A stretch of DNA of 64,000 nt, from the NCBI GenBank assembly GCA_963823555.1, contig CAWGMA010000001.1:1472001-1536000 (forward strand), in the 5' to 3' direction. The notes beneath the pieces were generated by a model. The model was not told the origin of the DNA and made no database searches. It worked only from the letters and a program-made list of their open reading frames with translations. Every line of letters starts with the position of its first letter. The first letter of the stretch is position 1. Source of the stretch: Candidatus Eiseniibacteriota bacterium. Its GTDB lineage: Bacteria > Eisenbacteria > RBG-16-71-46 > CAVPCR01. A program made the position numbers and the translations under genes. Positions 18,698 through 64,000 of this stretch are shown here, piece by piece.

Positions 18698-19789
18698 TCA
18701 GAAGCTATACGAACCGCCGATGCGATGGGACGAGTCGAAGGCAGGATGATCCCCGACGAAGGCGTAGTCGACGCCGAAGCCGCGGTAACGGAAGCCGGCG
18801 CCGGCGGTGATGGCGTCGGTGGTCGCACCGAACCTCAAGGCGAGTGCCCGTGCGTACCAGTATTCGAGGCCACCATGAAAGTCGGCGCCGAGAACCGTTT
18901 CCCCGAAGGAGACTCCGCTCGCCGTCTTGCGGTTGTCGAAGGTCATGTCCATGTCCCCGGCGGCGGTGACGACGCCGCGCAGAACGGGGACCTCGCGGGT
19001 GTACTGGGCGCCGATGGTGACCGAAGGGGCGATGGTCTCGCGCCGCCCGGAGTCCCAGGCCAGAAGCGTGGTGGTGACGTCGGAGACCCGGAGCCCGGCG
19101 GAGAAGGTCGTCGTGGGAAAGTACATGAGGCCGAGGTCGGCGCCGATGCCGAAGCTCGAGTTGCCCGGAAGCGACTGCCGGATGATCTTCGCCGTCCCAG
19201 CCAGCGAGAAGGCCGATCCCAGACCGCGCGCATACGAGATCAGGAACGCCATCTCGGACTCGGAATCGTAGCGGACGGGGATGTTCTCGATGAAGAGGCG
19301 CTCGGATCCAGCCGGGTCATCGGGATCGAAATCCCAGCGTCCGTTGCCGTTGGTGTCCTCGAACTCGACTCCCGGGATGAGATCCTCCGGATCCTTGTCC
19401 CGGATGGCGATATCGTCGACGGCGCTGCGCAGGAAGCCAAACGCTACGGCTTGCGGTTTACCGCCTCCCGTATCGGACAGGGGCTGGCGGAAGGCGATGA
19501 AGTCGTGGTTCACGAGCTGCCCGAATTGCTCGGCGTGCTCGGCCCATACCTGGCGCTGGCTCCCGAAGATGAGCCCGGCCGGGTTCCAGTAGACCGCGGT
19601 GGCGTCATCGGCCATGGCCACGAAAGCGCTCCCCATACCCAGGGCGCGGGCCCCGACCGGCAGTTTCAGGAACTCCCCGGCGTACTTGTCAATCGCCGCC
19701 GCGGGCTGGCTCGACCCGGCGGTCACCACCAGGGCGACGACCAGGGCGCATCCGAGGCCCAGACCTTTCGAATGGAGCGGGCAAATCAC
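18698..19789 (-). CDS. PorV/UPF0164-family outer-membrane barrel (T9SS-associated family)
   Basis: KYAGEFLKLPVGARALGMG.AF.A.ADDATAVYWNPAGL signature; C-terminal SHRIGGSYSF; GTG 19789 with GGAGG RBS. Confidence 0.82.
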   Translation of the reverse strand: MICPLHSKGLGLGCALVVALVVTAGSSQPAAAIDKYAGEFLKLPVGARALGMGSAFVAMADDATAVYWNPAGLIFGSQRQVWAEHAEQFGQLVNHDFIAFRQPLSDTGGGKPQAVAFGFLRSAVDDIAIRDKDPEDLIPGVEFEDTNGNGRWDFDPDDPAGSERLFIENIPVRYDSESEMAFLISYARGLGSAFSLAGTAKIIRQSLPGNSSFGIGADLGLMYFPTTTFSAGLRVSDVTTTLLAWDSGRRETIAPSVTIGAQYTREVPVLRGVVTAAGDMDMTFDNRKTASGVSFGETVLGADFHGGLEYWYARALALRFGATTDAITAGAGFRYRGFGVDYAFVGDHPAFDSSHRIGGSYSF

Positions 19790-19950
19790 GACTTGGTCCT
19801 CCAGGAGGAGCCGCTCTGTGGCGGGCGCGGTCATGGGCGATCGCGTCGCCATGGGCAAGCCCTGGCCGGGCTCTCCCATGGCGCCTTGAGGGATAACACA
19901 GCATACCTGGGACGTTGGTTCCGGTGAAGCCCTGAAGCGAGCCCCCTCCG

Positions 19951-46175: not shown

Positions 46176-47285
46176 TCACTTCGCGCCGGGGCGTCCTCGC
46201 TTGTAGAACGGCTTCGCTACAACATGAGCCGAGAACACCTGGTCCCGAATCGTCACCTCGATCTCATCCCCCAGATTCGCCGAGTTGCTCGCAATGAGGG
46301 CAAGCGCATACGCCCCATCTAGAGTCGGCGCGAACATGCCGCTTGTGACCTGACCGATCGCCTGACCTCTCCACGCCACGCGACTACCCTGGCGCGCGAT
46401 GCGCGCCCCGGCCATCTTAATCCCAACCAGCTTCCTGGGGATGCCTGTTTCCCGCTGGCGCAGCAGAGCATCGCGACCCAGGAACGGTTTGTCGAGCTTG
46501 ACCGCAAAACCGATGCCGGCCTCGAGCGGCCCGATCTCGGGCGTCAACTCATGGCCATAGAGACAGAGCCCCGCCTCGAAGCGCAGCGTATCGCGCGCGC
46601 CCAGGCCAGCGGGTTGGACTCCCAGATCGACTCCCGCCGCCAGGAGCCCGGCCCACAACCTGGCCGCTTGCTCCGCATCGACCATGATCTCGAAACCGTC
46701 TTCCCCGGTGTACCCGAGCCGGGCGATGAGCGCATCGATCCCGAAGACCCGTCCGTGCTGGAAGCGGTAGTAGCCAAGATCATGGACGAGTGCTCCCCCG
46801 CGACCGAGGAGCTCGGGCGCGCGCGGGCCCTGCACGGCGACAAGGGCGCTGCGCGCCGAGATGTCGTCCATCTCGACCCCGGCCGGCCGGTGGCTCTCGA
46901 GCCAGGCGAAGTCCTTCTCGCGGTTCGAAGCGTTGACCACCATGAGGTAGTCACCGGCAGCAACGCGGTAGACGATCAGGTCATCGACCGTGCCGCCGTC
47001 CTCATAGCAAAGCGCCGAGTAGATGGCCTGGCCATCGGCGATGCCGGCGATCCGGTTGGTCACCAGGTGATCGAGGAAGGACTCGGCGCCGCGGCCGTGA
47101 ACCCGGAAGCGCCCCATGTGCGAGACGTCGAAGAGACCGACCGCCTGGCGGACGGCGAGGTGCTCGGGAATGATGCCCGAGTAAGACAGGGGCATGTCCC
47201 ACCCGGAGAAGTCGACCATCTTGGCGCGTAGCTCCCGGTGGGTGGCGTTGAGTGGAGTCTTGTGCGCAGCGAGAGCGGAGTCCAT
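46176..47285 (-). CDS. gcvT: Glycine cleavage system aminomethyltransferase T
   Basis: FSGWDMP, FDVSHMG, GYTGEDGFE, GLGARDTLRFEAG. Confidence 0.97.
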   Translation of the reverse strand: MDSALAAHKTPLNATHRELRAKMVDFSGWDMPLSYSGIIPEHLAVRQAVGLFDVSHMGRFRVHGRGAESFLDHLVTNRIAGIADGQAIYSALCYEDGGTVDDLIVYRVAAGDYLMVVNASNREKDFAWLESHRPAGVEMDDISARSALVAVQGPRAPELLGRGGALVHDLGYYRFQHGRVFGIDALIARLGYTGEDGFEIMVDAEQAARLWAGLLAAGVDLGVQPAGLGARDTLRFEAGLCLYGHELTPEIGPLEAGIGFAVKLDKPFLGRDALLRQRETGIPRKLVGIKMAGARIARQGSRVAWRGQAIGQVTSGMFAPTLDGAYALALIASNSANLGDEIEVTIRDQVFSAHVVAKPFYKRGRPGAK

Positions 47286-47364
47286 GGGTGTCGGCCGCTT
47301 CCTTGCCCCGCGGCGGGAGTCTGCTGCCGCCCGGTGCTTCCGGGCGGCGGTGAACAAGCGCCCG

Positions 47365-47877: not shown

Positions 47878-50800
47878 ATGAAGCTAGCCGTCCGGCTCGT
47901 CGCCGCTTCGCTCCTTCTCGGTGCCGCCCTTCCCGCGTCCGCCACCACCCCGATCAGCAGCTGGGGCACCACGATCACGGTCTCGAACGAGACCTATGTC
48001 CTCACCGCGGATCTCATCGATGCCGCCCAGGGCAGCGATGACTTCGCCATCGGCATCGCCCCCGGCGTCAGCGATGTGATCATCGATGGCGCGGGATTCC
48101 TGATCGATGGGCGCGACACCGCCGGAGCGGCAGACGACGACATCGGTATCGCCATGGTTGGCAACTCCGGCGCCCCGATTCGCAATGTCACCGTTCGCAA
48201 CGTTCGCTTCACGGATATCGGCAACGCCGTCTTCGGCCAGGACGATCTCTGCCTCGTCACCATCGAGGATTGCGAGTTCTTCACGGTCAACGACTGGAGC
48301 GCCATCGAGTTCATCACGCTCACCGCGGGAGCCGAGCTCAAGTGGATCACCGTGCGTGAGAACTGGATCCACGACTCGGCCGTCTTTCCCATCAAGTTCT
48401 TCAACTACGCCAATGCCGGGGCCGGCGTTGCCGTCATGCAGCATGTCTACGTCGTCGGCAATGTGATCCATGACAACGCTCGCTCGACGACGCACCCCGA
48501 GAACTGGAATGGAGCAATCGGCTTCCGCCACGGGGCGGAGGATGTCCGCGTCTGGGACAATGTCGTCATTCACAACGACGGGCTGGCCGGTCTCTTCCTC
48601 GGCTCGAACGACGTGGCGGGTGATGTGTTCGATGGAGTTTCGATCCGGGGGAATCACTTCTCCGCCGCGACGGGCAACATCCGGGCTCCATCGGGAACGG
48701 TCGTGGCCTCGGGCATCACGCTTCACCAGGTGACGACGACGAGCGGAGACTTCTCGACGTGGGCGGTGAGCGGCAACTACCTCTATCAGAACGCCAACCG
48801 GGGCATCGACCTCATACCCGGCGGCGGGCCCGCTCCTCTGCCCACGAACGACAACTGGTGGGGTGAGGACGGCACGATCGCCGGCACCTACGGCAACGGC
48901 GCCAGCAATGCCACCGATGCGAGTCCCCTCGATCTGGCCGACGGCATTCTGGCCTCCCCTGATGCAGCCGGCATCGACCGCGCCCTCTCCGATGTCGACG
49001 GCTACTTGGCGCAAGTCGTCCTCCTCAATCAGGATGACGGAGTGCCTGGCATTCGCGGGTTCGATGTCGACTACGACTTTGCCGCGTCGCTCGCTCTGCT
49101 CAGAACGATCGAGGGCCCCTTCCTCCGGTTGCAGTACCCGACGACCACGTTCTTCGACGTGCCCCGGATCGGGGGCAGCGGCAACCAGCGCACGGCGTCA
49201 GGAGCCGTCCTCGGTGGCGGCGCTCCCCTCGCCATCGGCAATGGCGCTCTCGCCATTTCGATCTTCCGCGCCACCGCCGAGGATCTCGGCGCCGGGGACG
49301 ACTACACGATCGACGCGGTCCTGCTTCGGGATCCGTTGAATGTGCCGCTCGCGGTCCTCGGGGATGATGATGCCAATCGTCCCGTTGACGATACCGACCC
49401 CACCGCGGGAGTCGCTTATACCGGTGGGGGCAACGGCTGCTTCAACACCCCCATGGCGAGCATCGATGTCACCGCCGATGACAACCTGGCACTCGAGGAT
49501 ATCCTCTATCGCTTCTACAAGGCGAGCCTCGACCCGGGTTGCTTCGTTCCCGTGGCCCTTGACCTGAACGGGACGGGCTATGGACCGAGCCCGACCGTGG
49601 TGACCTTCGCGGACGGCGACGGGGTCTATCTCTTCGAGGTCCGCGCCAGCGACGACGCGGGCAACTGGACCACCGCGAGCATCACGCTCACCTACGACAC
49701 CACTCCTCCGGCTGACTTTGCCGGTGCCACGGGGGCCGTCGCGGTCCCCGGTCCGGGCACTCCCGCCGCCGAGGAGGTGCTCGTGAGCTGGAACGGGAGC
49801 TTCGAGGCGGGCGGTGATCTTCGCCTGCGCTACCTGCCCTATGGTGGCGCCGTCGGCAACTACGCCTACCCGGAATACGATGACGCCGCACCCACGCCCG
49901 GCCCGCACTACCCCGGACCCGGCGAGGGTACGGAGATCGATATCCCCGATGTCGCCACGGGCAGCGTCACGATCCCGTACCTCCTCGCTGAGCGCTCTTA
50001 CTACTACTACGTCGTCTACGTGATCGACTGCGCCGGGAACCCATCTCCCGGTGTGGCTGGAAGCGCACGCGGGAGCGCGCTCAGTTACTACCTCGGTGAT
50101 TGGGATCCGAACACCACTCCCGCCTGTGCCGGATCGCCGCAGTACGCGAGCGGTAACGGCGAGGTGGATTTCTGTGATCTCATCGGGCTCAGCGCCACTT
50201 TCGGCACCGGCGACGGCCAGCCCGGCTACCAGAACTTCGCCGATATCGGACCGACGACGCCGGGTCCGGGAGTCCTCGATCTCCCGGCGACCGACAATGT
50301 CATCGACTTCGAGGACCTGATCCTGTTTGCGATCAACTTCGGGAACGTGGCACCGCTTGGCGGGGACATCGTGCTCGGCGAGGAAGCGCCCGGAGTCATC
50401 GGCTTCGTGCTCGAACCGAGTGCTGGCGATCGCGACGAACACCTGATAGTTCATCTCACGCTCACCGGCAACGCGCGCGAGGTGAAGGGATTCGAGGCGG
50501 TGGTCGGGCACGCGCCAGGCCTCCGTTTCGTCGCCGCCCGACCCGGTCCGCTGCTCGGCGAGGAGGTCTTCTTCCGCGGCCTCGAGCGCGGCAACACGGT
50601 AAGCGTCAACGCCGCGGTCCTGACTGGAACCTTCGTCGGCTCCGGAGTCGTGGCCGAGCTCGAGTACCAGATTCTCGACCCTGGCGACACCTCCGTCGAG
50701 GTGGTCGGGGCCAAGGTTCGCGATACCACCAACCGTGAGCTCGGCGGCATGGTGACCACTGGAATCGAGGCTCCGGAGGTCGCCCCGGCGGCGACGATCT

Positions 50801-51066
50801 TCCACGCCCCGGCGCCCAACCCCGCCTTCGGAAGCGTGGCGCTCCGCCTGACCCTCGCCCAGCCCGCGGTGGCACGCGTTCGCATCATCGATGCGACCGG
50901 TCGCGTGGTGCGGACGCTGGCCGATGGCCCGCTCACGGCCGGGGATCAGGAGCTCATCTGGAACGGCAGGAACGACGCGGGGCTTCCAGCCCCGAATGGC
51001 ATCTATCTCGTGGAGTTCGCCGCCGGTGCCAACCGGTCGGTGCACAAGCTGATGCTCGTGCGCTAG
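47878..51066 (+). CDS. Secreted protein A: parallel beta-helix, cohesin-like, Ig-like domains (incl. YPEYDD), dockerin-like, cohesin-like, FlgD/T9SS-type CTD
   Basis: Signal peptide; Asn-rich beta-helix repeats ending in NWWG; YLGD...GNGEVDFCDL and DNVIDFEDLILFAINFG; APNP..GRVVRTL..WNGRN..GIYL..K. Confidence 0.8.
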   Translation: MKLAVRLVAASLLLGAALPASATTPISSWGTTITVSNETYVLTADLIDAAQGSDDFAIGIAPGVSDVIIDGAGFLIDGRDTAGAADDDIGIAMVGNSGAPIRNVTVRNVRFTDIGNAVFGQDDLCLVTIEDCEFFTVNDWSAIEFITLTAGAELKWITVRENWIHDSAVFPIKFFNYANAGAGVAVMQHVYVVGNVIHDNARSTTHPENWNGAIGFRHGAEDVRVWDNVVIHNDGLAGLFLGSNDVAGDVFDGVSIRGNHFSAATGNIRAPSGTVVASGITLHQVTTTSGDFSTWAVSGNYLYQNANRGIDLIPGGGPAPLPTNDNWWGEDGTIAGTYGNGASNATDASPLDLADGILASPDAAGIDRALSDVDGYLAQVVLLNQDDGVPGIRGFDVDYDFAASLALLRTIEGPFLRLQYPTTTFFDVPRIGGSGNQRTASGAVLGGGAPLAIGNGALAISIFRATAEDLGAGDDYTIDAVLLRDPLNVPLAVLGDDDANRPVDDTDPTAGVAYTGGGNGCFNTPMASIDVTADDNLALEDILYRFYKASLDPGCFVPVALDLNGTGYGPSPTVVTFADGDGVYLFEVRASDDAGNWTTASITLTYDTTPPADFAGATGAVAVPGPGTPAAEEVLVSWNGSFEAGGDLRLRYLPYGGAVGNYAYPEYDDAAPTPGPHYPGPGEGTEIDIPDVATGSVTIPYLLAERSYYYYVVYVIDCAGNPSPGVAGSARGSALSYYLGDWDPNTTPACAGSPQYASGNGEVDFCDLIGLSATFGTGDGQPGYQNFADIGPTTPGPGVLDLPATDNVIDFEDLILFAINFGNVAPLGGDIVLGEEAPGVIGFVLEPSAGDRDEHLIVHLTLTGNAREVKGFEAVVGHAPGLRFVAARPGPLLGEEVFFRGLERGNTVSVNAAVLTGTFVGSGVVAELEYQILDPGDTSVEVVGAKVRDTTNRELGGMVTTGIEAPEVAPAATIFHAPAPNPAFGSVALRLTLAQPAVARVRIIDATGRVVRTLADGPLTAGDQELIWNGRNDAGLPAPNGIYLVEFAAGANRSVHKLMLVR

Positions 51067-51081
51067 CCAAGTCATGAGGAC

Positions 51082-51103
51082 CGGGACGGGGCCCTCCGTC
51101 CCG
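51082..51103 (+). other. Intergenic stem-loop between A and B
   Basis: CGGGACGG/CCGTCCCG inverted repeat with no U-tract. Confidence 0.4.
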
Positions 51104-51118
51104 ACTCGAGGAGGGGTC

Positions 51119-54100
51119 ATGGTCCAATCGCGCTTGACGCAGCGGGTTCTCCTGAGCGCCCTGGTGGGGAGTCTCCTCTTCGCCGCACCCGCGCTCGCCG
51201 CTGTGCCCATCTCCAGCTGGGGGTTCGTGACGCTCTTCAGCGATACCACCTACGTGGTCACGACGGACCTGACGGAACCGGCGGGCACACAAGGGGTGAG
51301 CGGCACCGTCGCCATCCGCATCCCGCCATCGGTGCACGACATCGTCATCGAAGGAGGCGGCTTCACGATCGATGGGCGCGATACCGGCGGTAGCCCTGAT
51401 CTCGACATCGGGGTGGCCATGAGCGGCATCGCCTCCGGATCGGTGCGCGACATCGTCATCAGGGATCTCCGCCTCACCGATGTCTCGATCGGCGTGCAGA
51501 TCCAGGATTACGTCTGCCGGGCCGTTGTCGAGGACTGTGAGTTCGCCGCCTGTGTCAACCAGGCGGGGATCGAGCTGGCGAACGTGATCGGCGGCGCCGA
51601 GATGCGCTGGATCACCGTGCGTGACAACTGGTTTCACGATGGCGCCGGCGTTCCGATCCTGGTTCGCAACACCGCCAACGCCGGGCCCGGGGTGGCCGTG
51701 ATGGAACACATCGCCGTCGTCGCCAATGTGGTCCATGACTACCGGCGCTCGCCGGCCTTTCCGGAGCCCTGGAACGCCGCCATCGTGCTCCGGCATGGCG
51801 GCAGCGAGCTGCGGGTCTGGGACAACCTGATGGTGGGAGGGACAGGCGAGTCCGGCGTCTTCATGACCTCGGATGACAGCTCCGACCAGCCCTACGATGC
51901 GGTCTCGATCCGCGGCAACGTGCTGGCCGGAGCGAGCGGCAACGTTCGCTCGGCAGGAGCCCAGAATGCCAGCGGCATCACGCTCGACCGCGTGACGACC
52001 ACGACCGGCGATTTCTCGACCTGGGTGGTCACCGGCAACTACCTCGTCCAGAACGAGGCCTACGGCATCGAGCTCTTGACCGGGACCAACACCCCGGCGA
52101 GCCTGCCCGCGGATGGCAACTGGTGGGGTGAAGACGGCACGGTCACCGGGGCCTTCGGCAACGGAGCCCTCAATACCACGGACGCCTCGCCGCGCGACAT
52201 CGCCGATGGCATCCTCGTCATCCCCTCGCGTTCCGCGGGTGGCGACCGCGCCGTGGCCGCTGTGGGCGGATTCGCCGGGGTCGCTGTCATCCTCAACCAG
52301 AACGACGGGGCACCGGGGATCCGCGGCTTCGATGTCGATTACGATCACACGGCCAGCTTCGCCTACCGACGCACGATCGAGGGCCCCTTCCTCGATCTGC
52401 AGGCGCCGACCGTGCAGTTCTACGACATCCCGCGGATCGGCGGGTCCGGGAACGAGCGCACGGCATCAGCCGCGATCCTGGGCGGCGGCGCCCCCCTGGC
52501 CGTCGGCAACGGAGTGCTCTTCCTGACCGTGCTTGCAGGCACCAGCGAGGACGAGGCGCCGGCCGCCGACTTCCTGCTCCAGGGCGCGGCGCTTCGTGAT
52601 CCCGGGAACTTCCCGGTTGCCATTGCCGCTCTCACCGATGCCGATCGCCCGATCGACGACACACCACCGGCGGCGACCGTCACCCCTCCAGGCGGCAACC
52701 CCTGCGTCGGGAGCGAGACCGCGCCCGTGGGGGTCGCGGTGAGCGACGACTTCGCTCTCGAAGATGTGGCCTACCGCTTCCATCGCATCGATCTGGCTCC
52801 GGGCTGCTGGACGGCCCTCTCGCTCGACGAACCGGGCACTGCCTACACCGGTCCAGCCAGCGTACCTGTGACGTTCGGTTTCGGCGAGGGGACCTATGTG
52901 TTCGAGCTCCTTGCCACGGATGACGCCGGCAATGCCGCCATCGAGAGGCTCTTCCTCTCCTTCGATGAGACGCCTCCGGCGGACTTCACAGGCACCACGA
53001 CCGCGCTCGCCGTTCCCGGTCCCGGCACGCCGGCGGCCGAGGAGGTTCGTTTCACCTGGAACGGCAGCTTCGAGGCTGGCGCCGACCTGAGGCTCCACTA
53101 CCTCCCCTATGGCGGCACACCCGGGAACTACGCTTACCCCGAGTACGACGACGCGGGCCCGGTGCCGGGACCGCACTTCCCGGGCCCCACGGAGGGGACG
53201 GTGATCGATCTCCCCGATGTCGCCTCCGGAAGCGTGGTCATTCCGTTCACGATCGCCGAACGTTCCTACTACTACTTCACCCTCTACGTGTTCGACTGCG
53301 CCGGAAATCCCTCGCCGGGGGCCAGCTCGACCGTGCGCAAGAACGCCCTCAGCTATTACCTGGGCGACTGGGACTCCCACAGCCCACCGGCCTGCCCCGG
53401 GTCGCCCGAGTACACGAGCGGCAACGGCGAGGTCCACTACTGCGATCTGATCGGAATGAGCCGTGCCTTCGCCACGACGCCGAGCGACCCCAACTACTCC
53501 GCCTATGTGGACATCGGTCCGACGACCCCAGGGCCTTCCCCCCGTGATCTACCCGTCACGGACAATGTGATCGACTTCGAGGACCTCATCATCTTCGCGG
53601 TCAACTTCGAGACCGTGTTCCCCTTCGCCGGCGATGACGAGACCGTGCTGGCCGACGAACGGACGGGGCGAATCGGCTCCGTCCGCCTCACCCTCGACGT
53701 GACATCGCGCGAAGAGGACCGAGTGCTGGCCAGGCTGCGGGTCGACGGCGACGTTGAAGAGCTCCTCGGTCTAGAGGCGGTGATCCTGACACCGGGCTTC
53801 GAGCTGGTTCGGGTCCGTCCGGGACCCATCGTGCCGGACTCGCACTTCCTGATCGCCGTGCCGCACAAGGATGGATGGACCTTCAACCTCGCCCTGCTCG
53901 GACCGGAGGCACGACTGGCAACCGCGGGCGTGGTGGGCGAGATCGAGCTCCGGCCCACGGGGAGCCTGGATGAACCCACATGCCGCCTTCAGAGCCACAA
54001 GCTCCGCGACCGCCGGAATCGCGAGCTGGATGGGTCCGGAGGCGTTGCGGCGGTGGGAACCGGGCCCCCCGCGAGCGACATTCCACGCACCTTCGCCCTG

Positions 54101-54349
54101 GCCGAGCCCGTTCCTAACCCGGCCAATCCGGTCACGAGCATCAATTTCTCTGTGCCGGGCCGCTCCGAGCTGAGGATTCACGTCTATGACGCGGCAGGTC
54201 GGCTCGTGGCGCGTCTTTTCGAGGGCATCGCCGAACCCGGCGAGCACACGGTGACATGGCGCGCCGACGAGCATGCCAGCGGCATGTACCTGATCGAGAT
54301 GACGGCGGGTGAATTCCGCGCGGTGCGGAAGGCGCTCATCATCAAGTAG
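51119..54349 (+). CDS. Secreted protein B, full-length paralog of protein A
   Basis: Colinear with A (IDGRDT, WITVRxNWxHD, NWWGEDGT, PRIGGSGN, AVPGPGTPAAEEV, NYAYPEYDD, DNVIDFEDL); PNPANP CTD; GAGGAGG RBS. Confidence 0.82.
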   Translation: MVQSRLTQRVLLSALVGSLLFAAPALAAVPISSWGFVTLFSDTTYVVTTDLTEPAGTQGVSGTVAIRIPPSVHDIVIEGGGFTIDGRDTGGSPDLDIGVAMSGIASGSVRDIVIRDLRLTDVSIGVQIQDYVCRAVVEDCEFAACVNQAGIELANVIGGAEMRWITVRDNWFHDGAGVPILVRNTANAGPGVAVMEHIAVVANVVHDYRRSPAFPEPWNAAIVLRHGGSELRVWDNLMVGGTGESGVFMTSDDSSDQPYDAVSIRGNVLAGASGNVRSAGAQNASGITLDRVTTTTGDFSTWVVTGNYLVQNEAYGIELLTGTNTPASLPADGNWWGEDGTVTGAFGNGALNTTDASPRDIADGILVIPSRSAGGDRAVAAVGGFAGVAVILNQNDGAPGIRGFDVDYDHTASFAYRRTIEGPFLDLQAPTVQFYDIPRIGGSGNERTASAAILGGGAPLAVGNGVLFLTVLAGTSEDEAPAADFLLQGAALRDPGNFPVAIAALTDADRPIDDTPPAATVTPPGGNPCVGSETAPVGVAVSDDFALEDVAYRFHRIDLAPGCWTALSLDEPGTAYTGPASVPVTFGFGEGTYVFELLATDDAGNAAIERLFLSFDETPPADFTGTTTALAVPGPGTPAAEEVRFTWNGSFEAGADLRLHYLPYGGTPGNYAYPEYDDAGPVPGPHFPGPTEGTVIDLPDVASGSVVIPFTIAERSYYYFTLYVFDCAGNPSPGASSTVRKNALSYYLGDWDSHSPPACPGSPEYTSGNGEVHYCDLIGMSRAFATTPSDPNYSAYVDIGPTTPGPSPRDLPVTDNVIDFEDLIIFAVNFETVFPFAGDDETVLADERTGRIGSVRLTLDVTSREEDRVLARLRVDGDVEELLGLEAVILTPGFELVRVRPGPIVPDSHFLIAVPHKDGWTFNLALLGPEARLATAGVVGEIELRPTGSLDEPTCRLQSHKLRDRRNRELDGSGGVAAVGTGPPASDIPRTFALAEPVPNPANPVTSINFSVPGRSELRIHVYDAAGRLVARLFEGIAEPGEHTVTWRADEHASGMYLIEMTAGEFRAVRKALIIK

Positions 54350-54359
54350 GAGGTCGGTG

Positions 54360-55130
54360 ATGGCACGATTCCTTGCGCTGATTGCAGTCGCCTCACTAGC
54401 CGGGATGCTGGCGGTGACCGTGGCCCTCGCCGAACCGATCGTCTACCTGCGCCCCTTGTGCCTGGACATCCAGGCTGGGCAGACCCTGACGGTGCACCTC
54501 AGCGTGGGCGACACCGGGGATGAGATCAGCTGCTTCTATGCGGTGATCGCGTACGATCCAGCCAGGATCGTCATCAACGATGTCACCGAGGGCGGTCTCT
54601 ACGTGTCGACATCCGAGCCGACCTATCCGGGCTGGACGGCGACGGCGCCCGATTCCTTCGAGGTCTACAACTGCATCCTGGGTTCGGGAACGTTCGTGCT
54701 CGGACCGGGCGATCTCGCCGACATCGAGGTCGAGGGGCTCGTCACCGGGCCGGCGCCGATGACGATCAGCTTCATCGACATCCGGGACCGGAACCGGGAC
54801 TCCTACCCCACGCTCTTTGTCGTCAATTGCGGCACGACCGGGCTTCCGGCGGAAGCCGAGACGCCGGCGATCGCGCCGCGCCTCAGGGTCGCGCCGAACC
54901 CGGCACCGGGCCGAGCTCGGATCGAGCTTCTCGGCCCGGTGCCGGCGGGGAGCGTCGACATCTACGATGTCGCCGGCCGGCTCTGCCGCAGCCTCGGTGT
55001 CGCTGCCGGCGGCGCCGTTCTCCGCTGGGATGGTCGTGACGACCACGGCCGCAACCTGCCGCCCGGGATGTACCTGATCCGGGGCGGTGAGAAGGGGGAA
55101 CTTGGAACCAAGTTGCTTCTGATTCGCTAG
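54360..55130 (+). CDS. Small secreted protein C: cohesin-like domain plus FlgD/T9SS-type CTD
   Basis: Signal peptide; GQTLTVHL...IAYDP...VTEG...GPGDLADI...IRD; APNP..IYDVAGR..WDGRD..GMY. Confidence 0.78.
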   Translation: MARFLALIAVASLAGMLAVTVALAEPIVYLRPLCLDIQAGQTLTVHLSVGDTGDEISCFYAVIAYDPARIVINDVTEGGLYVSTSEPTYPGWTATAPDSFEVYNCILGSGTFVLGPGDLADIEVEGLVTGPAPMTISFIDIRDRNRDSYPTLFVVNCGTTGLPAEAETPAIAPRLRVAPNPAPGRARIELLGPVPAGSVDIYDVAGRLCRSLGVAAGGAVLRWDGRDDHGRNLPPGMYLIRGGEKGELGTKLLLIR

Positions 55131-55214
55131 GAGGGCGCACGGCCGCTCGGCCGCCAGAGCCCCTGCTTCCCATCGCCCCCTGGCCGCTCATGGGGACACA
55201 GTGAGGAGAGGATC

Positions 55215-58200
55215 ATGCACAAGCCGCAACTGATCTTGCTGTCTTCTGCCATCGCCCTGGTGCTGGCCGCCGCCGTGGCGGCGGCTCCAGTGGCCACGCG
55301 CTTAAGCGAGAACCCGGATGACATCGTGGGTCCTCCCATGGCCGTCCGCGGTTTCTCGCCGCTGTCGGTGCTCGGGAGCCCGGCCAATCTCGATGATGGG
55401 ATCCAGCTCGGAGGCGACTACGGGCGGCGCATGCAGGCGGACGTCACCGAGGACAATGCCGGCAATGGAGGGGGCGATTCGGATCCTGACGATGCCGGAT
55501 GGGACTGGGTGCGCACCTCGCCTCCCGATCCCTACGAACACTCGGCGACGGCAAGCCCCACGAACCTCTACGGCGTCTGCTCCCTCGGGCTCTACTACGC
55601 GCATCTGCGCAATCCCGGCGACGCCGGCATCCTGCAGGCCATGACCGACGCCGCCGTGTGGAGCAGGAACGCTGGGAGCGGGAGCATCCGCACCTCTGCC
55701 GACATGATCTTCCTCATGCTGTATGCGGATCTGGTGACGGATAACACCTTCGCAGATGCGGCCAAGGCCAAGATGGATGCCCGAATCGCGGCCGCGGGCA
55801 CCAACGGGACCGATCTCGCTGTCTACATTCGAGATCTCCGCGGCGTCACGCAGAACTACCCCAACGGCATCATTGCCTGGGACATCGGGGCCTATGTCGT
55901 GGCCTGTCAGATGCTCTTCGACGCGGGCTACGGATCACCTTATGACACCTGGGCCGACCAGATGGCCGAGGTGCTGTGGCAGGATTCGTTCAACGATGAC
56001 CCCGGTCTCTTCGATGTCGTCGATGACGCCGGCTGGGATCCCACCTACACCAATCGCAACTTCTGGTGGTACAACCTCGGCATCTCGGGCCTGATCGACG
56101 CCTTCGAGACGTCAGGTGTCCACACCGCCGAGATCCCGGGCCTGGTCCAGCGCATCCTCGACAGCCAGGCTTCCACGGGGGCGATCTGCTTCAGCTATGG
56201 CGTCCATGCGGATGACGAGGACTGGCAATCGACGGCCTACGCGGCCATGTCCCTCGCTCGTCACGACAAGCCGACCTACCAGCTCGATATCAGCCACATG
56301 GCCTACTACATGGCCGCCACCCAGGATCCGACCCACGGCTCCTGGCTCTACTCCGGCGGTGACCACTATCCGGAGGTTTGCCTCGAGAACGTCTCGGGCA
56401 TGTACTTCGGCGAGCCACCCACGGAGGTTCTCGTCGACGACGACTTCGTCGATCAGGATGCGGTGGATACCTACAACGCCGCCAACAGCACCAGCTACGT
56501 CCTCGGCTACGACGCCTTCGACAACATCCAGGATGGCGTCAATGCCGTCTCCGGCAGCACGGTCAACGTGCTTCCGGGGACGTATGAGCAGCAGGTGGTG
56601 ATCACGACCAATAACCTCGTTCTTGCCGGGTCCGGCGTCGGCAGCACGATCATCAAGTCGCCGGTAAGTCTCGCCGCCTCATTCAACACCGGGGTCAGCA
56701 ATTACCCGGTGGTATTCATCAACGGAGCGACGGGAGTCACGATCCAGGACCTCACCGTCGACGGTTTCGGCCGCGGGAACTCGAACTACCGCTTCATCGG
56801 TATCGCCTACTGGAATGCCGGTGGGACGATCCAGGACTGTCGCATCACTGGTATACGTGAGGCGCCGCTTAGCGGGAATCAGCACGGGGTCGGCATCTAT
56901 AGCTACAACAACACCGGTGGTCCATACGCCTTGAACGTCCTTGCCACGACAGTTGATGACTACCAGAAGAACGCAATGGCGCTTTCCGGGGATGGCATGG
57001 TCGTAAGCGTGGCCAACTGCACTACGGTTGGTTCCGGAGATCTAGGCTTGGGACTGCCGGCTCAGAATGGCATCCAGGTCAGCTATGGAGCCAGCGGTTC
57101 GGTTTCATCCACCTCCATCTCCAATATGCGGTATACGCCGGCGACATGGGTGGCCAGCGGGGTTCTGGTCTATCTGCCTGGTGACGCAGTCACCCTCAGC
57201 AGCCTGAGCGGAGCCAACGCGATCACCAACGTGCAGGCTCCGATCAGCTGGTACGACGGATCCGGATCAATGACTGATGTGGAGACGGTCGGCGGATCGG
57301 ACTTTGGACCTGTGTACATCGAGAATGCTTCGACGGTCTCCAAGACTGCCGAGTCGAGTCCGCGGCGCTCCGAACCTCTTTCAGAGGAACGCCAGCAGTC
57401 GGGACCGCCCGTGGCAACGAGCTTCAGCGTTAGCGTTTCCGGAAGCTGCTTCACGGGCACCGGGGTTACCGGGACCGCGGGCGTTTATGCCTACTCAGCG
57501 GGCATGCCACTCAGTGTCTTGGTAAACAACACTACGCTCAGCAACTGGGACTATGGCCTTGTCGCTGATGGCGCAGCCGTCAACCTGACCGCCCAGGACA
57601 ACTCGATTTCCGGGAATGTCAGCGCCGGCTTCGACAACACGCTGAGCCTCGCCGCCCAGGATGCAGAGTACAACTGGTGGGGTCATGTTGGCGGACCGGC
57701 CGGGGGCGGAGACCTTGTCCTCGGTACCGGGGTTGATTACACGCCGTGGCGCACGGACGGCACGAGCACCACGCTCTGCGCCTTTACCCCGGCCAACACC
57801 AACGCGGTTACGCCCGGACCGGCGCCGAGCTGCATCTCGACGGTGAATCCGTGCGTCACCATCCCGGTCGACATCGCGCGGAGTGACAACGCGAATCTCC
57901 GTGGTTTCAGCATCCAGGTCACGCTCTCCTCGGAGCTGGCGCTGTGCGGATCCGGGATCAGCGAGGGCACTTACCTGAGCGGCATCGGTGGCACGAACTT
58001 CCAGGTCACGGGATCCAATCCCTACACCGTGGACTGTGCCATCCTCGGCGGCACGTGCGGCGCAACGGCGCCAACCGGCAATCTTTTCAACCTGAATGTG
58101 ACGAGCGCGAGCCCGACAGCCACTGGAACCATCAGCATCACGGGCGTCACGCTGCGCGACTGCGTCAACCAGCCCATTCCGGGTTCGCCCGGCACGCCAC

Positions 58201-59533
58201 TCTCGATCACGATCGACAACACGCCGCCGGTGGCGGTCACGAACCTCACGGCCACGCAGGTCAAGGCCGCGAATGACTCGGATGGCACGACGAAGATCAC
58301 CCTCAACTTCACCGTCCCGGGAGACGCGGCGGTGACCGAGGTCTACCGGGCGCCCTACGGGAACTATCCCGAGTACGACGACCCGACGCCGACTCCGGGC
58401 GCCGTGCCGAGCGCTCCCTCCTATCCGCCGGCTGCACCCTGGGCTCCGACCGGCGTCACGGGAACCGGGCAGACCGATGAGGTGGCCTGGCCGGCGCGTG
58501 ACTTCTGGTACTACGCCGTCTTCACCAAGGACGCCTGCGGCAACGTGTCCGCGGTCTCGAACATGACCGACGGAACGCTCAACTACCACCTCGGCGATGT
58601 CACGGCACGCCTCCGGCGCAGGGGACAATGTGGTCGGTTACCGTGGACATCTCGCTCCTCGGAGCTCACTACGGCATCACCCTCATTCCCAACGATCCAT
58701 TCAACTACCTCGACGTCGGTCCCACCACCGACTACTCGGTGGATGCCCGGCCGACGACGGACAACCTCATCAACTTCGAGGACCTGATCGTCTTCGCCAT
58801 CAACTACGAACTGGTCGGCAAGAACGCAGCCCCATCCGGTATCAACGACATCCCGGACGGCAGACCGACGCTCGTGCTCCGCACCGAGGCGACGGCCGAT
58901 GGCATCCTCGCCCACCTCGTCCTCGCGGATAACCCGGGCAGCGTGAAGGGTATCCACGCCGTGATCGAGTCCGACCCAGGGCTCGCCCTGGTCACGGTCG
59001 AAGAGGGAGCTCTTCTCGCGGGCCAGGAGGACATCTTCTTCCGCCATCTGGCCGAAGGCGGTACCGGCATCCATGCCGCGGCGCTCGGCAACGGGGTCGC
59101 GATCCACGGCTCCGGCGAGGTCGCCACGCTCCGCTATCGCGGTCGCGGCGACGTGCGCCTGGCGGTGACCGATCTCCGCGATCTCGACAATCGCTTCCTC
59201 GGTGATCCGCCGACGACGACGGCGGTGGCCGAGGCGGCACAGGCCGTGATCCCCGAGCGCTTCGCGCTCCTCGCGGCCCAGCCCAATCCCTTCAACCCGT
59301 CGACCACGCTCCGCTTCAACCTGCCGGTGGCCTCGCACGCCACGCTCGCGATCTACGACGTGAGCGGGCAGCTGGTGCGCATGCTCGTCGACGGCGATCT
59401 ACAACCGGGCGAGTTCTCCGCCTACTGGGACGGCCGGAACGGCCGGGGCCAGACGGTGAGCTCGGGTGTGTATCTGGTGCGGATGCGGGCCGGCAGTTTC
59501 GAGGCCACGCAGAAGCTCCAGCTCCTCAAGTAA
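55215..59533 (+). CDS. Secreted protein D: alpha/alpha toroid (QW-repeat-like), beta-helix, cohesin-like, YPEYDD Ig, dockerin-like, cohesin-like, CTD; two frameshifts at about 58.60-58.64 kb
   Basis: ORFs 55215-58787, 58597 (GAGDNVVG) and 58628-59533 join colinearly with intact paralog E; QxxxGxW-like motifs in the N-terminal part. Confidence 0.75.
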
Positions 59534-59542
59534 GAACGATCC

Positions 59543-59575
59543 GGGGCGGGGAGCTTCTGCGCTCCCCGCCCCTTT
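59543..59575 (+). terminator. Strong GC hairpin with a short U-tract between D and E (terminator or stabiliser)
   Basis: GGGGCGGGGAGC-TTCTGC-GCTCCCCGCCCC-TTT. Confidence 0.6.
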
Positions 59576-59620
59576 CGACTCCGCGACCGCCGGGCGGAGC
59601 CCACAAGGAGGACAGGGCCG

Positions 59621-62600
59621 ATGCAATCACACTCACGCTTCTGGATTCCGGTGCTGATCATGATGGTCGCCGTTGCGGCCATCACGCTGCCCCCGACCAG
59701 CGCCGGCGCACGTGTTTCCCCGACCGAAGATGCGCCGGGGGGCGCCGACCTCGATCGCACCCCGGTCGAGACTCCGGGCGACGCCAGCGATGTGAAGAAC
59801 CTCGCTACCGGTCTGTTCTACGACAGCGTGGCCCTGGCTCTGGCCGACCCCCTCACACTCGACGGTCATACGCTGGAAGTGCAGAGCAGCTATGCGGAGG
59901 GCCTGGTCGACGTCAACAAGGCGGTCACCATCCAGGGGCTCTTGGGATCCGAGGTCATCACGCCGACCACGAACACCGGGAGCTCGGGTGACGCTCGTGG
60001 CTGGTTCCTTGTCACCGTTCCCGGAGTGACCATCAAGAACCTCAACTTCGATGGCACCGGCTTTCTCATTCAGCAGGCGGTCCGCTGCCTCGAGGATGTC
60101 GTCATCGAAGACTGCTCGTTCTCGAACATCAGCTACTCCCTCTACACCGGCATCGGAGTGGTCGGATTCAAGATTACGACGGTCAATCGATGCAGCTTTG
60201 CCAACATCGAGCGCATCGGCATCATCCTCTTCGGGCTCGACGCCAATGGGTTCGTCAACGAGTGTACCTACACCGGGAAGGGCATCGTCGACGGCCTCGA
60301 CTACGGAATCGAGCTGGGCGGAGGAGCCATCGCCGCTCTGTACAACAACACGATCACCAATTGCCTGGGAGTCGCATCGAGCGACGGCTCGACCTCGGCT
60401 GCCACCCTCATCACGACCTACTTCGGCCTGGGGACCATGGGAGATGTCTCCCATAACTTCCTCAACAACAACACAGCTGCGATTGCGGCCGGATATGATG
60501 CGGCCGACGAGTCGATGGTGATGGCTTACGAGAACGACTTCTCAGGGAACCTATCCTACGGTGTCGAGAACACTTCGTCGATCAGGATCACGGACGCCTC
60601 CGCCAACTGGTGGGGCACCAATGACCGCACCACGGTCGCGTCCCTGACCTCGGGCACCGTCGACTACACGCCCTGGACCGATGTGGGCACCGACACATCG
60701 GCGGATCCTGGCTTCCAGCCCGACCTCTCGACGCTCCACGTCGATGCCGCAAGCCCACAACTGGGCTCTAGCATCCTGCAAGAGGCCATCCAGCTCGTAA
60801 GCGGTAGCACCGTCATCGCAGGGCCTGGCACCTACGTCGGGGGTATCAACCTCAACAAGTCGGTAACGCTCCTTGGCGCTCAGAGCGGCGTTCCGGCATG
60901 TGGCCGCGTGGTCGGCCCGCCGAATCCGGCGGTCGAATCGATCATCACCGGCGGCGGGACGCCCCTACTCAAGCTCCTCGGCGGCTGCGCCGGCAGCGTG
61001 ATCGACGGCTTCGCCTTCATCGGCGGCGCCAAGGGCATCGAATCCAGCTCCGGCCCGATCAACAACGTGCAGATCCTGAACAACCACATTGCCGGCTTCA
61101 CGGGCAGCGGCGTCTTCTTGAACGATTCGGGAACCGACATTACCGTGGATCAAAACAACATCGATGGATCGAGCCAGACGGGCGCCGGTGGTATCTTCCA
61201 CCTCGATCAGGACAACTTCGATGGGTTGCACTTCACCAGCAACTGCGTCCTCAATTCCGTCAACGGTACCGGCCTCTTCGTCGATGGCAATCACAATGTC
61301 GGCGCCAGCGGGCTTCGCACGCCGCTCATCGACGGCAACCAGTTCACCGCCAATAACACAGGAACGAATCTCGGACGGTTTGCGTTCGAGTTCGGAACCA
61401 TCAGCAACAACACCTTCTCCGGGAGTGGGTTTGACGGATTGCAGGGCGGCATCCAGAACACGGCGATCACGGGCAACACCTTCTCCGGGAACGGCCGTTT
61501 CGGACTCGCCCTGACCGGTTTCGGAGGCAGCAGTGATCCCACGCGCGGAGCACAGAACTGCACCATCACGGGGAACAGCTTCACCAGCAATGTGAGCGCG
61601 GGGCTGCTGTTCAGCGGGAGTCAGTACCCTGGCACCATCTCGACGAACATCGCCAACAACAACAACTTCACCGGAAACATCGGCCCAGGCGCGTCGTATT
61701 CGGGCACCGAGACCCTGGATCTCACCTGCAACTGGTGGAGTGACCTGGGCGGCCCGGACTACTCGCCGACCAATCCCAATCCGCCTGGAGACGCAATCGT
61801 CGCGGCCAGCGCGCTTTTCGCCCCGTGGCTGAACGGCGCTGCTCCGGGCGGCAGCTGTGACCAGTACGGCAACAATACGATCGCGGCGAACACGACGGGG
61901 CTCTGCATCTCGACGGCGACGACCTGCGTGACCGTGCCGGTCGAGTTCAACCGGCTCGACGCGAGCCCGGCCCGCGCCGTGAGCGTCACGATCCAGCTCA
62001 GCTCGAACATCGAGCTGTGCGGCGCCATCACCCAGGGCACCTGGATCGGGCCCTACAACTCGGTCTTCCAGGTCATCGACAACACCGGTGGATCCTACAC
62101 CGTGGATCAATCGATCCTCGGCACACCCTGCGGGATCACGACCGGGGGCACCCTCTTCACGGTGCCGGTCCGGAAGACCACGGCCGCCGGCGACGGCACG
62201 GGAACCATCACCGTGACCGCAGCCGATGTCCGTGATTGCGGTAATCCCGCTGTGACGCTGCCGGGCATTGCTGGCGCCCCGGCCTCGATTCCGATCGACA
62301 TCACGGCCCCGGCGGCGGTGGCGCTGACCGCCGCTCAGGATCTCACCTCGAACGGCACCGACGGCACGACCTCGATCGATGTCACCGTCCCCAACACGGT
62401 GGTCGCGGGCGACGAGGTCCGCGTCTACCGCAAGGGCTTCGGCAACTACCCGGAGTACGATGACCCGCCCAGTCCGGGTGCGGTGCCCATGATACCCACC
62501 ACGGAGGCAGCGGCGCTGGGCACGGGCTGGACCCTCGCCTTCTCGACCACCGGTCCCTACCCCATCACGGTCCCGAACGAGCCCACGACCCGGGACTTCT

Positions 62601-63634
62601 GGTACTACGTGGCCTTTGCCGAGGATCCCTGTGGCAACGTGGGCGGGGCCACCGCGATCACGGGCGGCAACCTCAACTACCACCTCGGCGATGTCACCGA
62701 CGGCACGACGCCCGGCAACGGCGACAACTTCGTCGATGGCGCCGACATCTCCGCGCTGGGGACAGCCTACGGCCAGGTGGACGGCGGGCCTTTCTACCAG
62801 AACTACATCGATGTCGGACCCACCACCGATGGCTCCACGCGCGGTCGCCCGATCACCGACAACCAGATCGAGTTCGAGGACCTGATCCTCTTCGCGATCA
62901 ACTACGGGAACGTGAGCCTGAACGCCCCGGCGGGTGGTTTGGCGGACGTGCCTGACGGCAGGCCCGTACTCCTCCTCCGCACCGAGGCCACCGCCGACGG
63001 CATCCTCGCCCACCTCGTGCTCGAGGACAACGCCGGCCAGGTCAAGGGCATCCACGCCGTCCTCGAGTTCGATCCAGGGCTCAGCCTGGTCGCGGTCGAG
63101 GAGGGGGCGCTCCTCCAGGCTCAGGGCCAGCCGGTCTTCTTCCGTCACCTGGAGGAAGCCGGTGCCGGCATCCACACCGCCGTCCTCGGTAACGGCATCG
63201 GCCTCCACGGCACAGGCGATGTCGCCACGGTGCGCTTCCGGGGCCGCGGCGAGGTGCGGCTCGGCCTCGCCGACCTCCGGGATCTCGATAACCATGCCAT
63301 CGGCGATCCGCCCCAGACCACCGGCATCGAGCCGGCGGCGGTGACACCCACGCCCGAGCGCTTCGAGCTGCTCGCGGCGCAACCCAATCCCTTCAATCCG
63401 TCGACCACGCTGCGCTTCCGGCTGCCGCAGGCGGCTCACACCACGATCTCGATCTATGATGTGAGCGGGCAGCTCGTGCGCACCCTCGTTGACGGCGATC
63501 TGCAACCGGGCGAGCACACCGCCTTCTTCGATGGGCGGAACGCTCGGGGCCAGACGGTGAGCTCCGGCGTCTATCTGGTGCGCATGCGGGCCGGCAGCTT
63601 CGAGGCCACGCAGAAGCTCCATCTCCTCAAGTAG
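59621..63634 (+). CDS. Secreted protein E: two beta-helix domains, cohesin-like, YPEYDD Ig, dockerin-like, cohesin-like, CTD
   Basis: Signal peptide; NosD/pectin-lyase-like repeats, NWWG, VDYTPW; YHLGD..GNGDNFVDGADI; DNQIEFEDLILFAINYG; PNPFNPST CTD. Confidence 0.82.
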   Translation: MQSHSRFWIPVLIMMVAVAAITLPPTSAGARVSPTEDAPGGADLDRTPVETPGDASDVKNLATGLFYDSVALALADPLTLDGHTLEVQSSYAEGLVDVNKAVTIQGLLGSEVITPTTNTGSSGDARGWFLVTVPGVTIKNLNFDGTGFLIQQAVRCLEDVVIEDCSFSNISYSLYTGIGVVGFKITTVNRCSFANIERIGIILFGLDANGFVNECTYTGKGIVDGLDYGIELGGGAIAALYNNTITNCLGVASSDGSTSAATLITTYFGLGTMGDVSHNFLNNNTAAIAAGYDAADESMVMAYENDFSGNLSYGVENTSSIRITDASANWWGTNDRTTVASLTSGTVDYTPWTDVGTDTSADPGFQPDLSTLHVDAASPQLGSSILQEAIQLVSGSTVIAGPGTYVGGINLNKSVTLLGAQSGVPACGRVVGPPNPAVESIITGGGTPLLKLLGGCAGSVIDGFAFIGGAKGIESSSGPINNVQILNNHIAGFTGSGVFLNDSGTDITVDQNNIDGSSQTGAGGIFHLDQDNFDGLHFTSNCVLNSVNGTGLFVDGNHNVGASGLRTPLIDGNQFTANNTGTNLGRFAFEFGTISNNTFSGSGFDGLQGGIQNTAITGNTFSGNGRFGLALTGFGGSSDPTRGAQNCTITGNSFTSNVSAGLLFSGSQYPGTISTNIANNNNFTGNIGPGASYSGTETLDLTCNWWSDLGGPDYSPTNPNPPGDAIVAASALFAPWLNGAAPGGSCDQYGNNTIAANTTGLCISTATTCVTVPVEFNRLDASPARAVSVTIQLSSNIELCGAITQGTWIGPYNSVFQVIDNTGGSYTVDQSILGTPCGITTGGTLFTVPVRKTTAAGDGTGTITVTAADVRDCGNPAVTLPGIAGAPASIPIDITAPAAVALTAAQDLTSNGTDGTTSIDVTVPNTVVAGDEVRVYRKGFGNYPEYDDPPSPGAVPMIPTTEAAALGTGWTLAFSTTGPYPITVPNEPTTRDFWYYVAFAEDPCGNVGGATAITGGNLNYHLGDVTDGTTPGNGDNFVDGADISALGTAYGQVDGGPFYQNYIDVGPTTDGSTRGRPITDNQIEFEDLILFAINYGNVSLNAPAGGLADVPDGRPVLLLRTEATADGILAHLVLEDNAGQVKGIHAVLEFDPGLSLVAVEEGALLQAQGQPVFFRHLEEAGAGIHTAVLGNGIGLHGTGDVATVRFRGRGEVRLGLADLRDLDNHAIGDPPQTTGIEPAAVTPTPERFELLAAQPNPFNPSTTLRFRLPQAAHTTISIYDVSGQLVRTLVDGDLQPGEHTAFFDGRNARGQTVSSGVYLVRMRAGSFEATQKLHLLK

Positions 63635-63666
63635 AACTGAGGTAGAATTGGATGAGGGTTGAGCGA

Positions 63667-63695
63667 GGCCGGGGCGCCACCAGGGCGCCCCGGCC
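63667..63695 (+). other. Intergenic 12-bp stem-loop after E
   Basis: GGCCGGGGCGCC-ACCAG-GGCGCCCCGGCC with no U-tract. Confidence 0.5.
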
Positions 63696-63735
63696 CGCCT
63701 CCCAGAACCGATCACCGCTTCACGAAGGGGTCGCC

Positions 63736-64000
63736 ATGCGGACTTCCTCGACTGCCGCCATCCTCCTTGCCACGTTCGTCCTCGTGCTCTCCGCCTCGGC
63801 AACGGCGCAACCGGCGGACTTCAACGCCTTCCTGCTGCCCGAGCTGAGCACGATCGACGTCGGGGACACTGTGTTCGTCCGCTTCGAAGTGGATGCGACG
63901 GCGATGGAGTTCAACGGCTATGAAGTGACGATCCAGTACGACCCCACGATCGTCGACTTCCTGCCGCCAGTGATCGAGGGTCCGCTCATGACCGGCGCTT
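63736..64000 (+). CDS. Secreted cohesin-like domain protein F (truncated by window edge)
   Basis: Manual translation MRTSSTAAILLATFVLVLSASATAQ...VGDTVFVRFEV...FNGYEVTIQYDP...IEGPLM, similar to the start of protein C. Confidence 0.72.
   Translation, partial: MRTSSTAAILLATFVLVLSASATAQPADFNAFLLPELSTIDVGDTVFVRFEVDATAMEFNGYEVTIQYDPTIVDFLPPVIEGPLMTGA

Follow-up and report, generated by a model that had tools for sequence, protein, structure and literature searches.

The published accounts of cohesin–dockerin systems cited here define the cellulosome by a multi-cohesin scaffoldin and a dockerin-fused glycoside hydrolase (PMC13487519) and place the interface of type II complexes at dockerin positions 10, 11 and 14 and on cohesin strands 8-3-6-5 (PMC8063739, PMC5141474). 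They also describe dockerin and multi-cohesin proteins in anaerobic methanotrophic archaea (ANME; PMC9012536) and infer, in Cloacimonadota (Candidatus (Ca.) Stygibacter), scaffoldin-like cohesin proteins anchored by a C-terminal sorting domain (CTD; PMC8542988). We analysed a window of 64,000 nucleotides (the whole stretch of DNA considered here) from a genome of Candidatus Eiseniibacteriota bacterium (4.6 Mb, 4 contigs, 92.5% complete), in which a tandem array encodes large proteins with both kinds of module in one chain. Cohesin–dockerin self-recognition is already known; the cassette shared by these proteins is conserved and apparently undescribed, and matched changes between its modules make it likely that the partner of each dockerin is the cohesin of the same gene directly behind it.

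The array comprises seven genes (A–G), five of them large (A, B, D, E and G). Its fixed unit is an FN3-like module (X), a dockerin, a cohesin (cohesin 2) and a sorting domain, with a further upstream cohesin (cohesin 1) optional. We chose the protein of gene E (59621..63634, plus strand, as are all its modules; 1337 aa) for modelling, which has a beta-helix cargo followed by the full tail: cohesin 1 (61871..62305, supported by structure search of the model), the FN3-like X with a conserved YPEYDD motif (62306..62662), a dockerin of atypical, type II-like form whose two calcium loops both carry inserts (62666..62917), cohesin 2 as its putative partner (62963..63304), and a type IX secretion system (T9SS) type A or FlgD-like CTD (63359..63631).

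The cohesin assignments were supported by both structure and profile comparisons. The AlphaFold2 model for residues 750-1337 of E (588 residues; 79 sequences) had a predicted local distance difference test score (pLDDT) of 91 and a predicted template modelling score (pTM) of 0.77. Cohesin 1 (model residues 1-146) formed the nine-stranded jelly-roll of cohesins and matched the solved cohesins 5nrk_A and 6kgc_A (Z 16.6, root-mean-square deviation (rmsd) 2.3, 137-138 residues aligned); the best 20 rows of this search were all cohesin-containing entries, with non-cohesin rows from Z 11.2 down, and Foldseek with the whole 588-residue model gave mainly uninformative multi-immunoglobulin (Ig) rows. 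Cohesin 2 was assigned by profile: it matched cohesin 1 at 96.7%, and 22 of its 23 sequence matches in the PDB were cohesin entries (best E 2e-6), with ScaB cohesins at the top. Pfam Cohesin (PF00963) stayed below its cut-off in the window proteins (for C, 18.6 bits, E 0.002, against a cut-off of 24.1), whereas 11 of 41 relatives had a match at the place of cohesin 2 that reached it.

The dockerin of E, modelled alone (pLDDT 78.5), was compared with 48,161 chains, and all 15 chains with Z≥2 were dockerins (best Z 6.2 for 2ozn_B, rmsd 1.9, 55 aligned); these Z values are modest, yet all matches came from one family. In Foldseek, 12 of 13 rows were dockerin entries, none at E≤0.001, and type II X-dockerins ranked first both there and in the sequence profile. 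The domain contains the two calcium-loop/helix repeats of the dockerin fold, with Asp invariant at loop positions 1 and 12. Pfam Dockerin_1 (PF00404) matched none of 48 family members at E≤10, and a genome-wide PF00404 search gave nothing in the array, probably because of the inserts in both calcium loops. On helix 3, F336 and E337 (numbering of the modelled E fragment) were near-invariant and correspond to positions 10 and 11 of the second repeat, with I340 at relative position 14, while helix-1 positions 10 and 11 were variable. X packs N-terminal to the dockerin and precedes it in nearly all of 271 proteins; several X–dockerin pairs covaried (z 7-9.6), and X resembles FN3 domains joined to dockerins, which we regard as a lead. 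The array dockerins are predicted to be calcium-binding, type II-like X-dockerins. The cohesin-like and dockerin-like folds proposed in a sequence-only reading of this DNA were supported by these matches, which rule out unrelated folds for the modules. In A and B, the dockerins (50150-50345; 53410-53610) gave weak matches, of 19 and 17 bits against a cut-off of 40, to the NCBIfam model 'flexitail', which may be a related atypical dockerin.

The C-terminal domain that the same reading had called a FlgD/T9SS-type sorting domain proved to be one. TIGR04183 was above its cut-off in A, B, D (second frame), E and G (30.2 bits in E against a cut-off of 23) and below it in C, where FlgD_ig was above, and the E domain (model residues 499-588) matched the PorU CTD (Z 11.2), consistent with a T9SS type A sorting domain. 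The genome encodes SprA, six PorV-family genes above cut-off and 21 Peptidase_C25 matches; GldM was not found in it, by a search whose positive control was equally silent. Export of the large proteins by a type IX-like secretion system is likely.

The unit was widespread. Searches with the E tail returned 450 relatives (E≤0.001), the dockerin profile alone gave 845 clusters at 50% identity (E≤1e-10), and the dockerin was carried by 79 of 151 genomes representing the phylum. Relatives were labelled Ca. Eisenbacteria or Krumholzibacteriota, with a few Gemmatimonadota or Fibrobacteraceae. Cohesin 2 lay directly behind the dockerin in 140 of the best 150 dockerin-only matches; among the other ten, four ended within 31 residues and six ran into out-of-frame-looking or unrelated sequence. 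The source genome has eight cassette dockerins, five of them in the array, each followed by cohesin 2; this count is a lower bound, as loose pattern scans were insensitive (one missed both known dockerins and another missed one). Three further cassette genes and a cohesin-CTD gene lie outside the array (C2:203391-217485 and C1:478106-482425). Cohesin 1 is missing from two paralogs in the source genome and reaches three copies in relatives, and one relative of 2,234 residues (P0142) carries four X-dockerin-cohesin 2 units in tandem, with Ig/cadherin spacers and a single CTD. The cargo of 41 sampled relatives was beta-helix, LamG, FG-GAP, cadherin/Ig, Calx-beta or unassigned, and no glycoside hydrolase family was detected among the window proteins or in any of the 41 relatives scanned, such that the non-cellulosomal nature suggested earlier was upheld and cellulosome membership was rejected. 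Stand-alone cohesin genes, which that sequence-only reading had also noted in the array, lay near the cassette in 47 of the 59 loci whose flanks were long enough, counted with a profile built from the same loci; a single-cohesin protein with a short [ST]WGx[IV]Kxx[YF] tail stood beside the cassette in 34 of the 59, and at least two cassette frames occurred in 19 of 69 loci.

We assessed which cohesin matches the dockerin using mean-field covariation on 284 rows with all modules and, in a second run, on 346 rows. The top inter-domain pair was dockerin I340 with cohesin-2 G394 (z 10.1, compared to 5.0 for the next dockerin–cohesin 2 pair in the 284 rows), and with 346 rows its z rose to 19.6 against 5.5 for the next, falling to 2.2 once dockerins were re-paired with the cohesin of the nearest relative. 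V340 occurred with A394 in 25 of 300 rows, neither change in 267, and mixed states in 8. On a FastTree phylogeny of these 300 rows, left after 46 near-duplicate or gappy rows had been dropped from the 346 and built without the trait columns, 11.8 of the 15 independent pairs showed a joint change at the two positions and none an opposite one (sign test p about 0.0005), while the matching cohesin-1 position was not significantly associated with the dockerin (4.6 vs. 1.3 pairs, p = 0.375). The top dockerin–cohesin 1 pairs (I14-R327, z 7.3, and A37-D286, z 6.3) did not join helix 3 to the binding face (face-block maximum 4.0). The state was gene-specific: the paralog at C2:203-209 kb, without cohesin 1, is V/A and the array genes are I or M/G, and in one related locus (L027) two of three genes are V/A beside an I or M/G neighbour. 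In the alignment, G394 corresponds to the glycine on strand 3 of ScaB cohesins, and both I340 and G394 fall on the known type II interface. Because the I340/G394 changes are matched and gene-specific and the cohesin 1 signal is not significant, the sequences make cohesin 2 of the same gene the likely partner.

How this contact is made is less certain, and we give about an even chance to the dockerin clasping the cohesin 2 directly behind it in the same chain. Each large protein consists of variable adhesin- or lectin-like cargo, an optional cohesin 1, X, the dockerin, a flexible linker, cohesin 2 and the sorting domain, with cohesin and type II-like X-dockerin folds as predicted above. Helix 3 of the dockerin would touch strand 3 of cohesin 2 of its own gene, as the covariation suggests, and contact mostly in cis would produce a closed, calcium-dependent joint in the stalk beside the membrane anchor, which would keep the protein monomeric, prevent polymerisation before export and stiffen the stalk. 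CTD cleavage and attachment to anionic lipopolysaccharide (A-LPS) are described in Porphyromonas (PMC8545088, PMC4804311), and by analogy with Bacteroidota the sorting domain would be cleaved and cohesin 2 tied to the surface. Least certain of all, cohesin 1, C and F may be spare sockets that catch the dockerin of an opened clasp and so cross-link a surface layer. A contact in cis is favoured by the flexible linker with its sharp minimum length, by block duplication of the unit and by the pTM of the monomer model, which suggests that cohesin 2 is docked. The linker is rich in Ala, Pro, Ser and Gly and has a sharp lower edge, with 11 of 346 linkers shorter than 16 residues, 57 at 16 and a tail to 39.

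Several observations weigh against a clasp of this kind. The covariation is equally compatible with cis contact and with binding between two copies, and only one pair stands out, chosen post hoc from 9,240. In raw counts, a residue other than Gly stood at the matching cohesin-1 position in 11 of 13 V/A340 proteins compared to 61 of 229 others, an excess that was not significant on the tree. The face motif (R-G / D-x-A-x-L-G / R-D-x-x-N) is retained by cohesin 1 and by the short-tail stand-alone cohesins; in cohesin 1 it is conserved as strongly as in cohesin 2 (mean entropy 0.59 vs. 0.74 bits over ten matched positions that were selected for being conserved), and a permanent clasp leaves this conservation unexplained. 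The five large proteins of the array also share one state at the covarying pair, such that they could cross-bind. Complex prediction for two copies of cohesin 1-X-dockerin-cohesin 2 (482 aa) scored 0.01 against a mark of 0.42 and gave no answer either way. More tentatively, the proteins may build a phylum-wide, scaffoldin-free lattice: each would be exported latched shut by its own cohesin and would swap partners at a crowded surface, where dockerins take hold of either cohesin 2 or cohesin 1 on a neighbour and the chains are capped or anchored by cohesin-only proteins, so that a self-assembling, calcium-dependent coat displays interchangeable adhesin cargo.

Alternatively, the dockerin may bind cohesin 2 in a second copy of its own protein, a domain swap that would chain surface-anchored subunits head to tail into scaffoldin-free rings, filaments or a layer. 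This accounts equally well for the gene-specific covariation and has a precedent in Amy4 of Ruminococcus bromii, whose cohesin binds its own dockerin, with multimers proposed (PMC4611034), and whose aggregation ceased only on removal of the dockerin (PMC12663171). We consider such a polymer unlikely, however, since the linker has a minimum rather than a short maximum length, as expected for reaching round in cis, an uncapped polymer would risk assembly in the periplasm, and the four units in one chain of P0142 are no less compatible with a local clasp.

A mixed lattice is the model put forward in the sequence-only reading: dockerins would attach to the cohesin-only proteins and to cohesin 1 on different subunits, and the resulting heteropolymers would be branched, with caps or adaptors. 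Polymerisation of this kind is left without direct support, the only strong inter-domain covariation being that of the dockerin with the cohesin behind it in its own gene, a pairing that, if in cis, would by that reading's own account tell against the model. The retained face motif and the stand-alone cohesins near the cassette would fit a lattice, as would the two or three cohesin-1 copies in 39 of 271 relatives; with no free cassette-type dockerin among at least eight in the genome, the spare cohesins have no other evident partner, and type II X-dockerins can carry two binding sites of different specificity (PMC5141474). Against this stand the non-significant cohesin 1 signal, the different matched states held by paralogs of one genome, the variable helix-1 positions 10 and 11, which make no second conserved site evident, the members without cohesin 1 and the different binding-face motif of the F-type stand-alone cohesins; a tethered cohesin 2 should also out-compete free ones. 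On balance we judge the lattice improbable.

There is a slight chance that the linker is cut after export, with the cargo then held on a cohesin-2 stub by a calcium-dependent bond and sheddable or transferable to other cohesins. Such a tether fits own-gene pairing combined with conserved spare sockets, the 21 Peptidase_C25 matches, and the Lys or Arg found in 276 of 346 linkers, but no conserved cleavage motif was apparent by eye in the linkers and that of G has no basic residue. Least probable by far, together with the cut linker, is a cellulosome-like scaffold, in which the large proteins would be scaffoldins whose free cohesins recruit enzymes with ordinary dockerins: two proteins of the genome carry a Pfam-type dockerin, one of them an S8 peptidase, and Cloacimonadota are inferred to have a scaffoldin-like system that bears a CTD (PMC8542988), but two ordinary dockerins face at least 11 free cohesins, the S8 peptidase has its own neighbouring lipoprotein cohesin, neither dockerin protein is linked to the array, and the glycoside hydrolases that such a scaffold would recruit were absent as described above.

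The remaining genes of the array share the arrangement of E with some variation. The sequence-only reading had placed six co-oriented genes from 47878 to the window edge, and six plus-strand open reading frames (ORFs) were indeed found there, each with a hydrophobic, signal-peptide-like start as judged by eye; the array extends to a seventh gene, G, past the window. By hidden Markov model (HMM) matches, all five large genes followed the order cohesin, X with YPEYDD, dockerin, cohesin and CTD, so that the common tail proposed for the four large genes of the window held in A, B, D and E, except that D is not one frame and A and B have additional Ig-like domains between cohesin 1 and X. Genes A (47878..51066, plus strand; 1062 aa) and B (51119..54349, plus strand; 1076 aa) are paralogs (51% identical), each with a signal-like N-terminus and a beta-helix, followed by a divergent cohesin 1 that was located by profile alignment (87% probability, E 4e-6), Ig-like domains, X, dockerin, cohesin 2 and CTD. 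In A, cohesin 1 lies at about 49000-49350, the dockerin at 50077-50349, cohesin 2 at 50428-50742 and the CTD at 50794-51063; the corresponding positions in B are about 52270-52620, 53345-53617, 53684-54028 and 54092-54346. Gene C (54360..55130, plus strand; 256 aa) encodes, as had been read, a single cohesin (about 54420-54812) and a CTD, with no dockerin. Gene F (plus strand), correctly seen as starting alike and clipped by the window edge (63736..64000), is whole in the genome (278 aa, ending at window-equivalent 64572) and encodes a single cohesin and a CTD; it belongs to the conserved class of stand-alone cohesins with the different face motif. Gene G (64705-70107, beyond the window; ~1,800 aa), the last of the array, has LamG cargo and the tail of the other large genes.

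Gene D (55215..59533, plus strand) combines an alpha/alpha-toroid-like domain, a beta-helix, cohesin 1 (57798-58223), X (58227-58571), dockerin (58572-58816), cohesin 2 (58862-59203) and CTD (59258-59530). The assembly has two frame changes in it, near 58605 and 58640, within the first dockerin repeat; the sequence on either side is 48-69% identical to the paralogs, no independent contig in the sequencing runs spans the breaks, and they may be an assembly (long-read) error or a real lesion. All seven genes recur, slightly reordered, in a related locus (L011), whose D-like gene is also frame-broken, at other places. The N-terminal domain of D (55215-56400) resembles alpha/alpha toroids (squalene-cyclase or TED-like; named matches <0.9) and recurs in relatives including P0005 and P0022. 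Promoter and terminator scans found 4 and 3 sites compared to 2.0 and 6.3 in shuffles, which is not above chance, and the shares in sequencing runs were so low that neither a habitat nor expression could be read from them. On the minus strand at 42650-47357 are four genes that resemble a glycine cleavage operon, transcribed away from the array. The PorV-like gene noted earlier at 18.7 kb does belong to the PorV/PorQ family (18698..19879; PorV_fam 119 bits, cut-off 90), while its link to the array was rejected, as it is on the minus strand, 28 kb off and one of six such genes.

Elsewhere in the genome, the 21 Peptidase_C25 matches (C1:490795-516153 and other places) include six in one tandem run of proteins of 1,600-1,700 residues. 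The long CTD is present on 259 six-frame ORFs, and at least 80 ORFs end instead in the short [ST]WGx[IV]Kxx[YF] tail after a linker like that of CTD proteins and have no FlgD-type domain; such ORFs also occur in related loci (e.g. L013:16667-17275, L017:11712-12386), and the tail is a candidate second, very short sorting signal. At C1:1022476-1026177, a PKD-repeat-like protein has a cohesin-like domain, a canonical dockerin, a cohesin-like domain and a CTD, i.e. the cassette order with an ordinary dockerin, and the domain after this dockerin (C1:1025 kb) matches the cohesin profile (66%, E 5.5e-5). At C3:175109-178662, on the minus strand, an S8-like peptidase (by eye) carries a Pfam dockerin and a CTD; the domain behind its dockerin looks cohesin-like by eye and did not match the cohesin profiles. 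Directly after it, a small protein with a lipobox-like start (by eye) has a Pfam cohesin (E 7e-13), and the two could form a separate surface-anchoring pair.

Our search of the open-access literature returned no description of this cassette and no paper joining cohesin, dockerin and Eisenbacteria. The family extends cohesin–dockerin biology to a large, annotation-missed group of proteins in uncultured diderms, carried by roughly half of the genomes sampled from the phylum. If the clasp in cis is true, the bond would serve as an intramolecular latch or a joint of the stalk, a use that is so far undescribed; if swapping is true, the proteins would form a self-assembling surface coat, a lattice that would form only if the clasp opens, and offer a source of new orthogonal cohesin–dockerin pairs for designer complexes.

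Among known systems, the type II X-dockerin anchoring pairs of Clostridium thermocellum CipA (Coh9-X-DocII, 3kcp) and of Acetivibrio cellulolyticus ScaA XDoc with a ScaB cohesin (4wi0/4u3s) share with the array the cohesin-X-dockerin order (for 3kcp, Z 16.1, rmsd 8.9 and 250 aligned over E model residues 2-351), the dockerin fold and the L/F-E-D recognition motif; AcScaA likewise has an insertion in the first calcium loop (PMC5141474). Unlike in these pairs, the partner cohesin of the array would sit in the same chain behind the dockerin rather than on a wall-anchored scaffoldin, and the array has larger inserts in both loops, an FN3-like X, a T9SS-type sorting domain, no enzyme cargo and a diderm host. 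A signal-like N-terminus and a CTD are shared with T9SS type A cargo of Bacteroidota, as are the SprA, PorV-family and C25/PorU-like genes of the genome, whereas the host lies outside Bacteroidota. The Archaeoglobus fulgidus cohesin 2xdh was among the best cohesin matches, and the best dockerin match, 2ozn_B, comes from C. perfringens NagJ-NagH. An A. fulgidus ORF presumably carries a cohesin as well as a dockerin. In the cited accounts of these and of the ANME and Cloacimonadota non-cellulosomal systems, no X-dockerin-cohesin-CTD unit repeated on many cargo proteins and no within-gene pairing is described. Amy4 (Sca1) of R. bromii resembles the array proteins in having both modules in one chain with mutual recognition and proposed multimers (PMC4611034, PMC12663171), but it is a single GH13 amylase, with its dockerin at the C-terminus, from the amylosome of a Firmicute, whereas the array family spans at least 845 clusters with an internal X-dockerin directly before a cohesin, non-catalytic cargo and a sorting domain. 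Self-recognition is shown biochemically for Amy4, and for the array it is supported by covariation.

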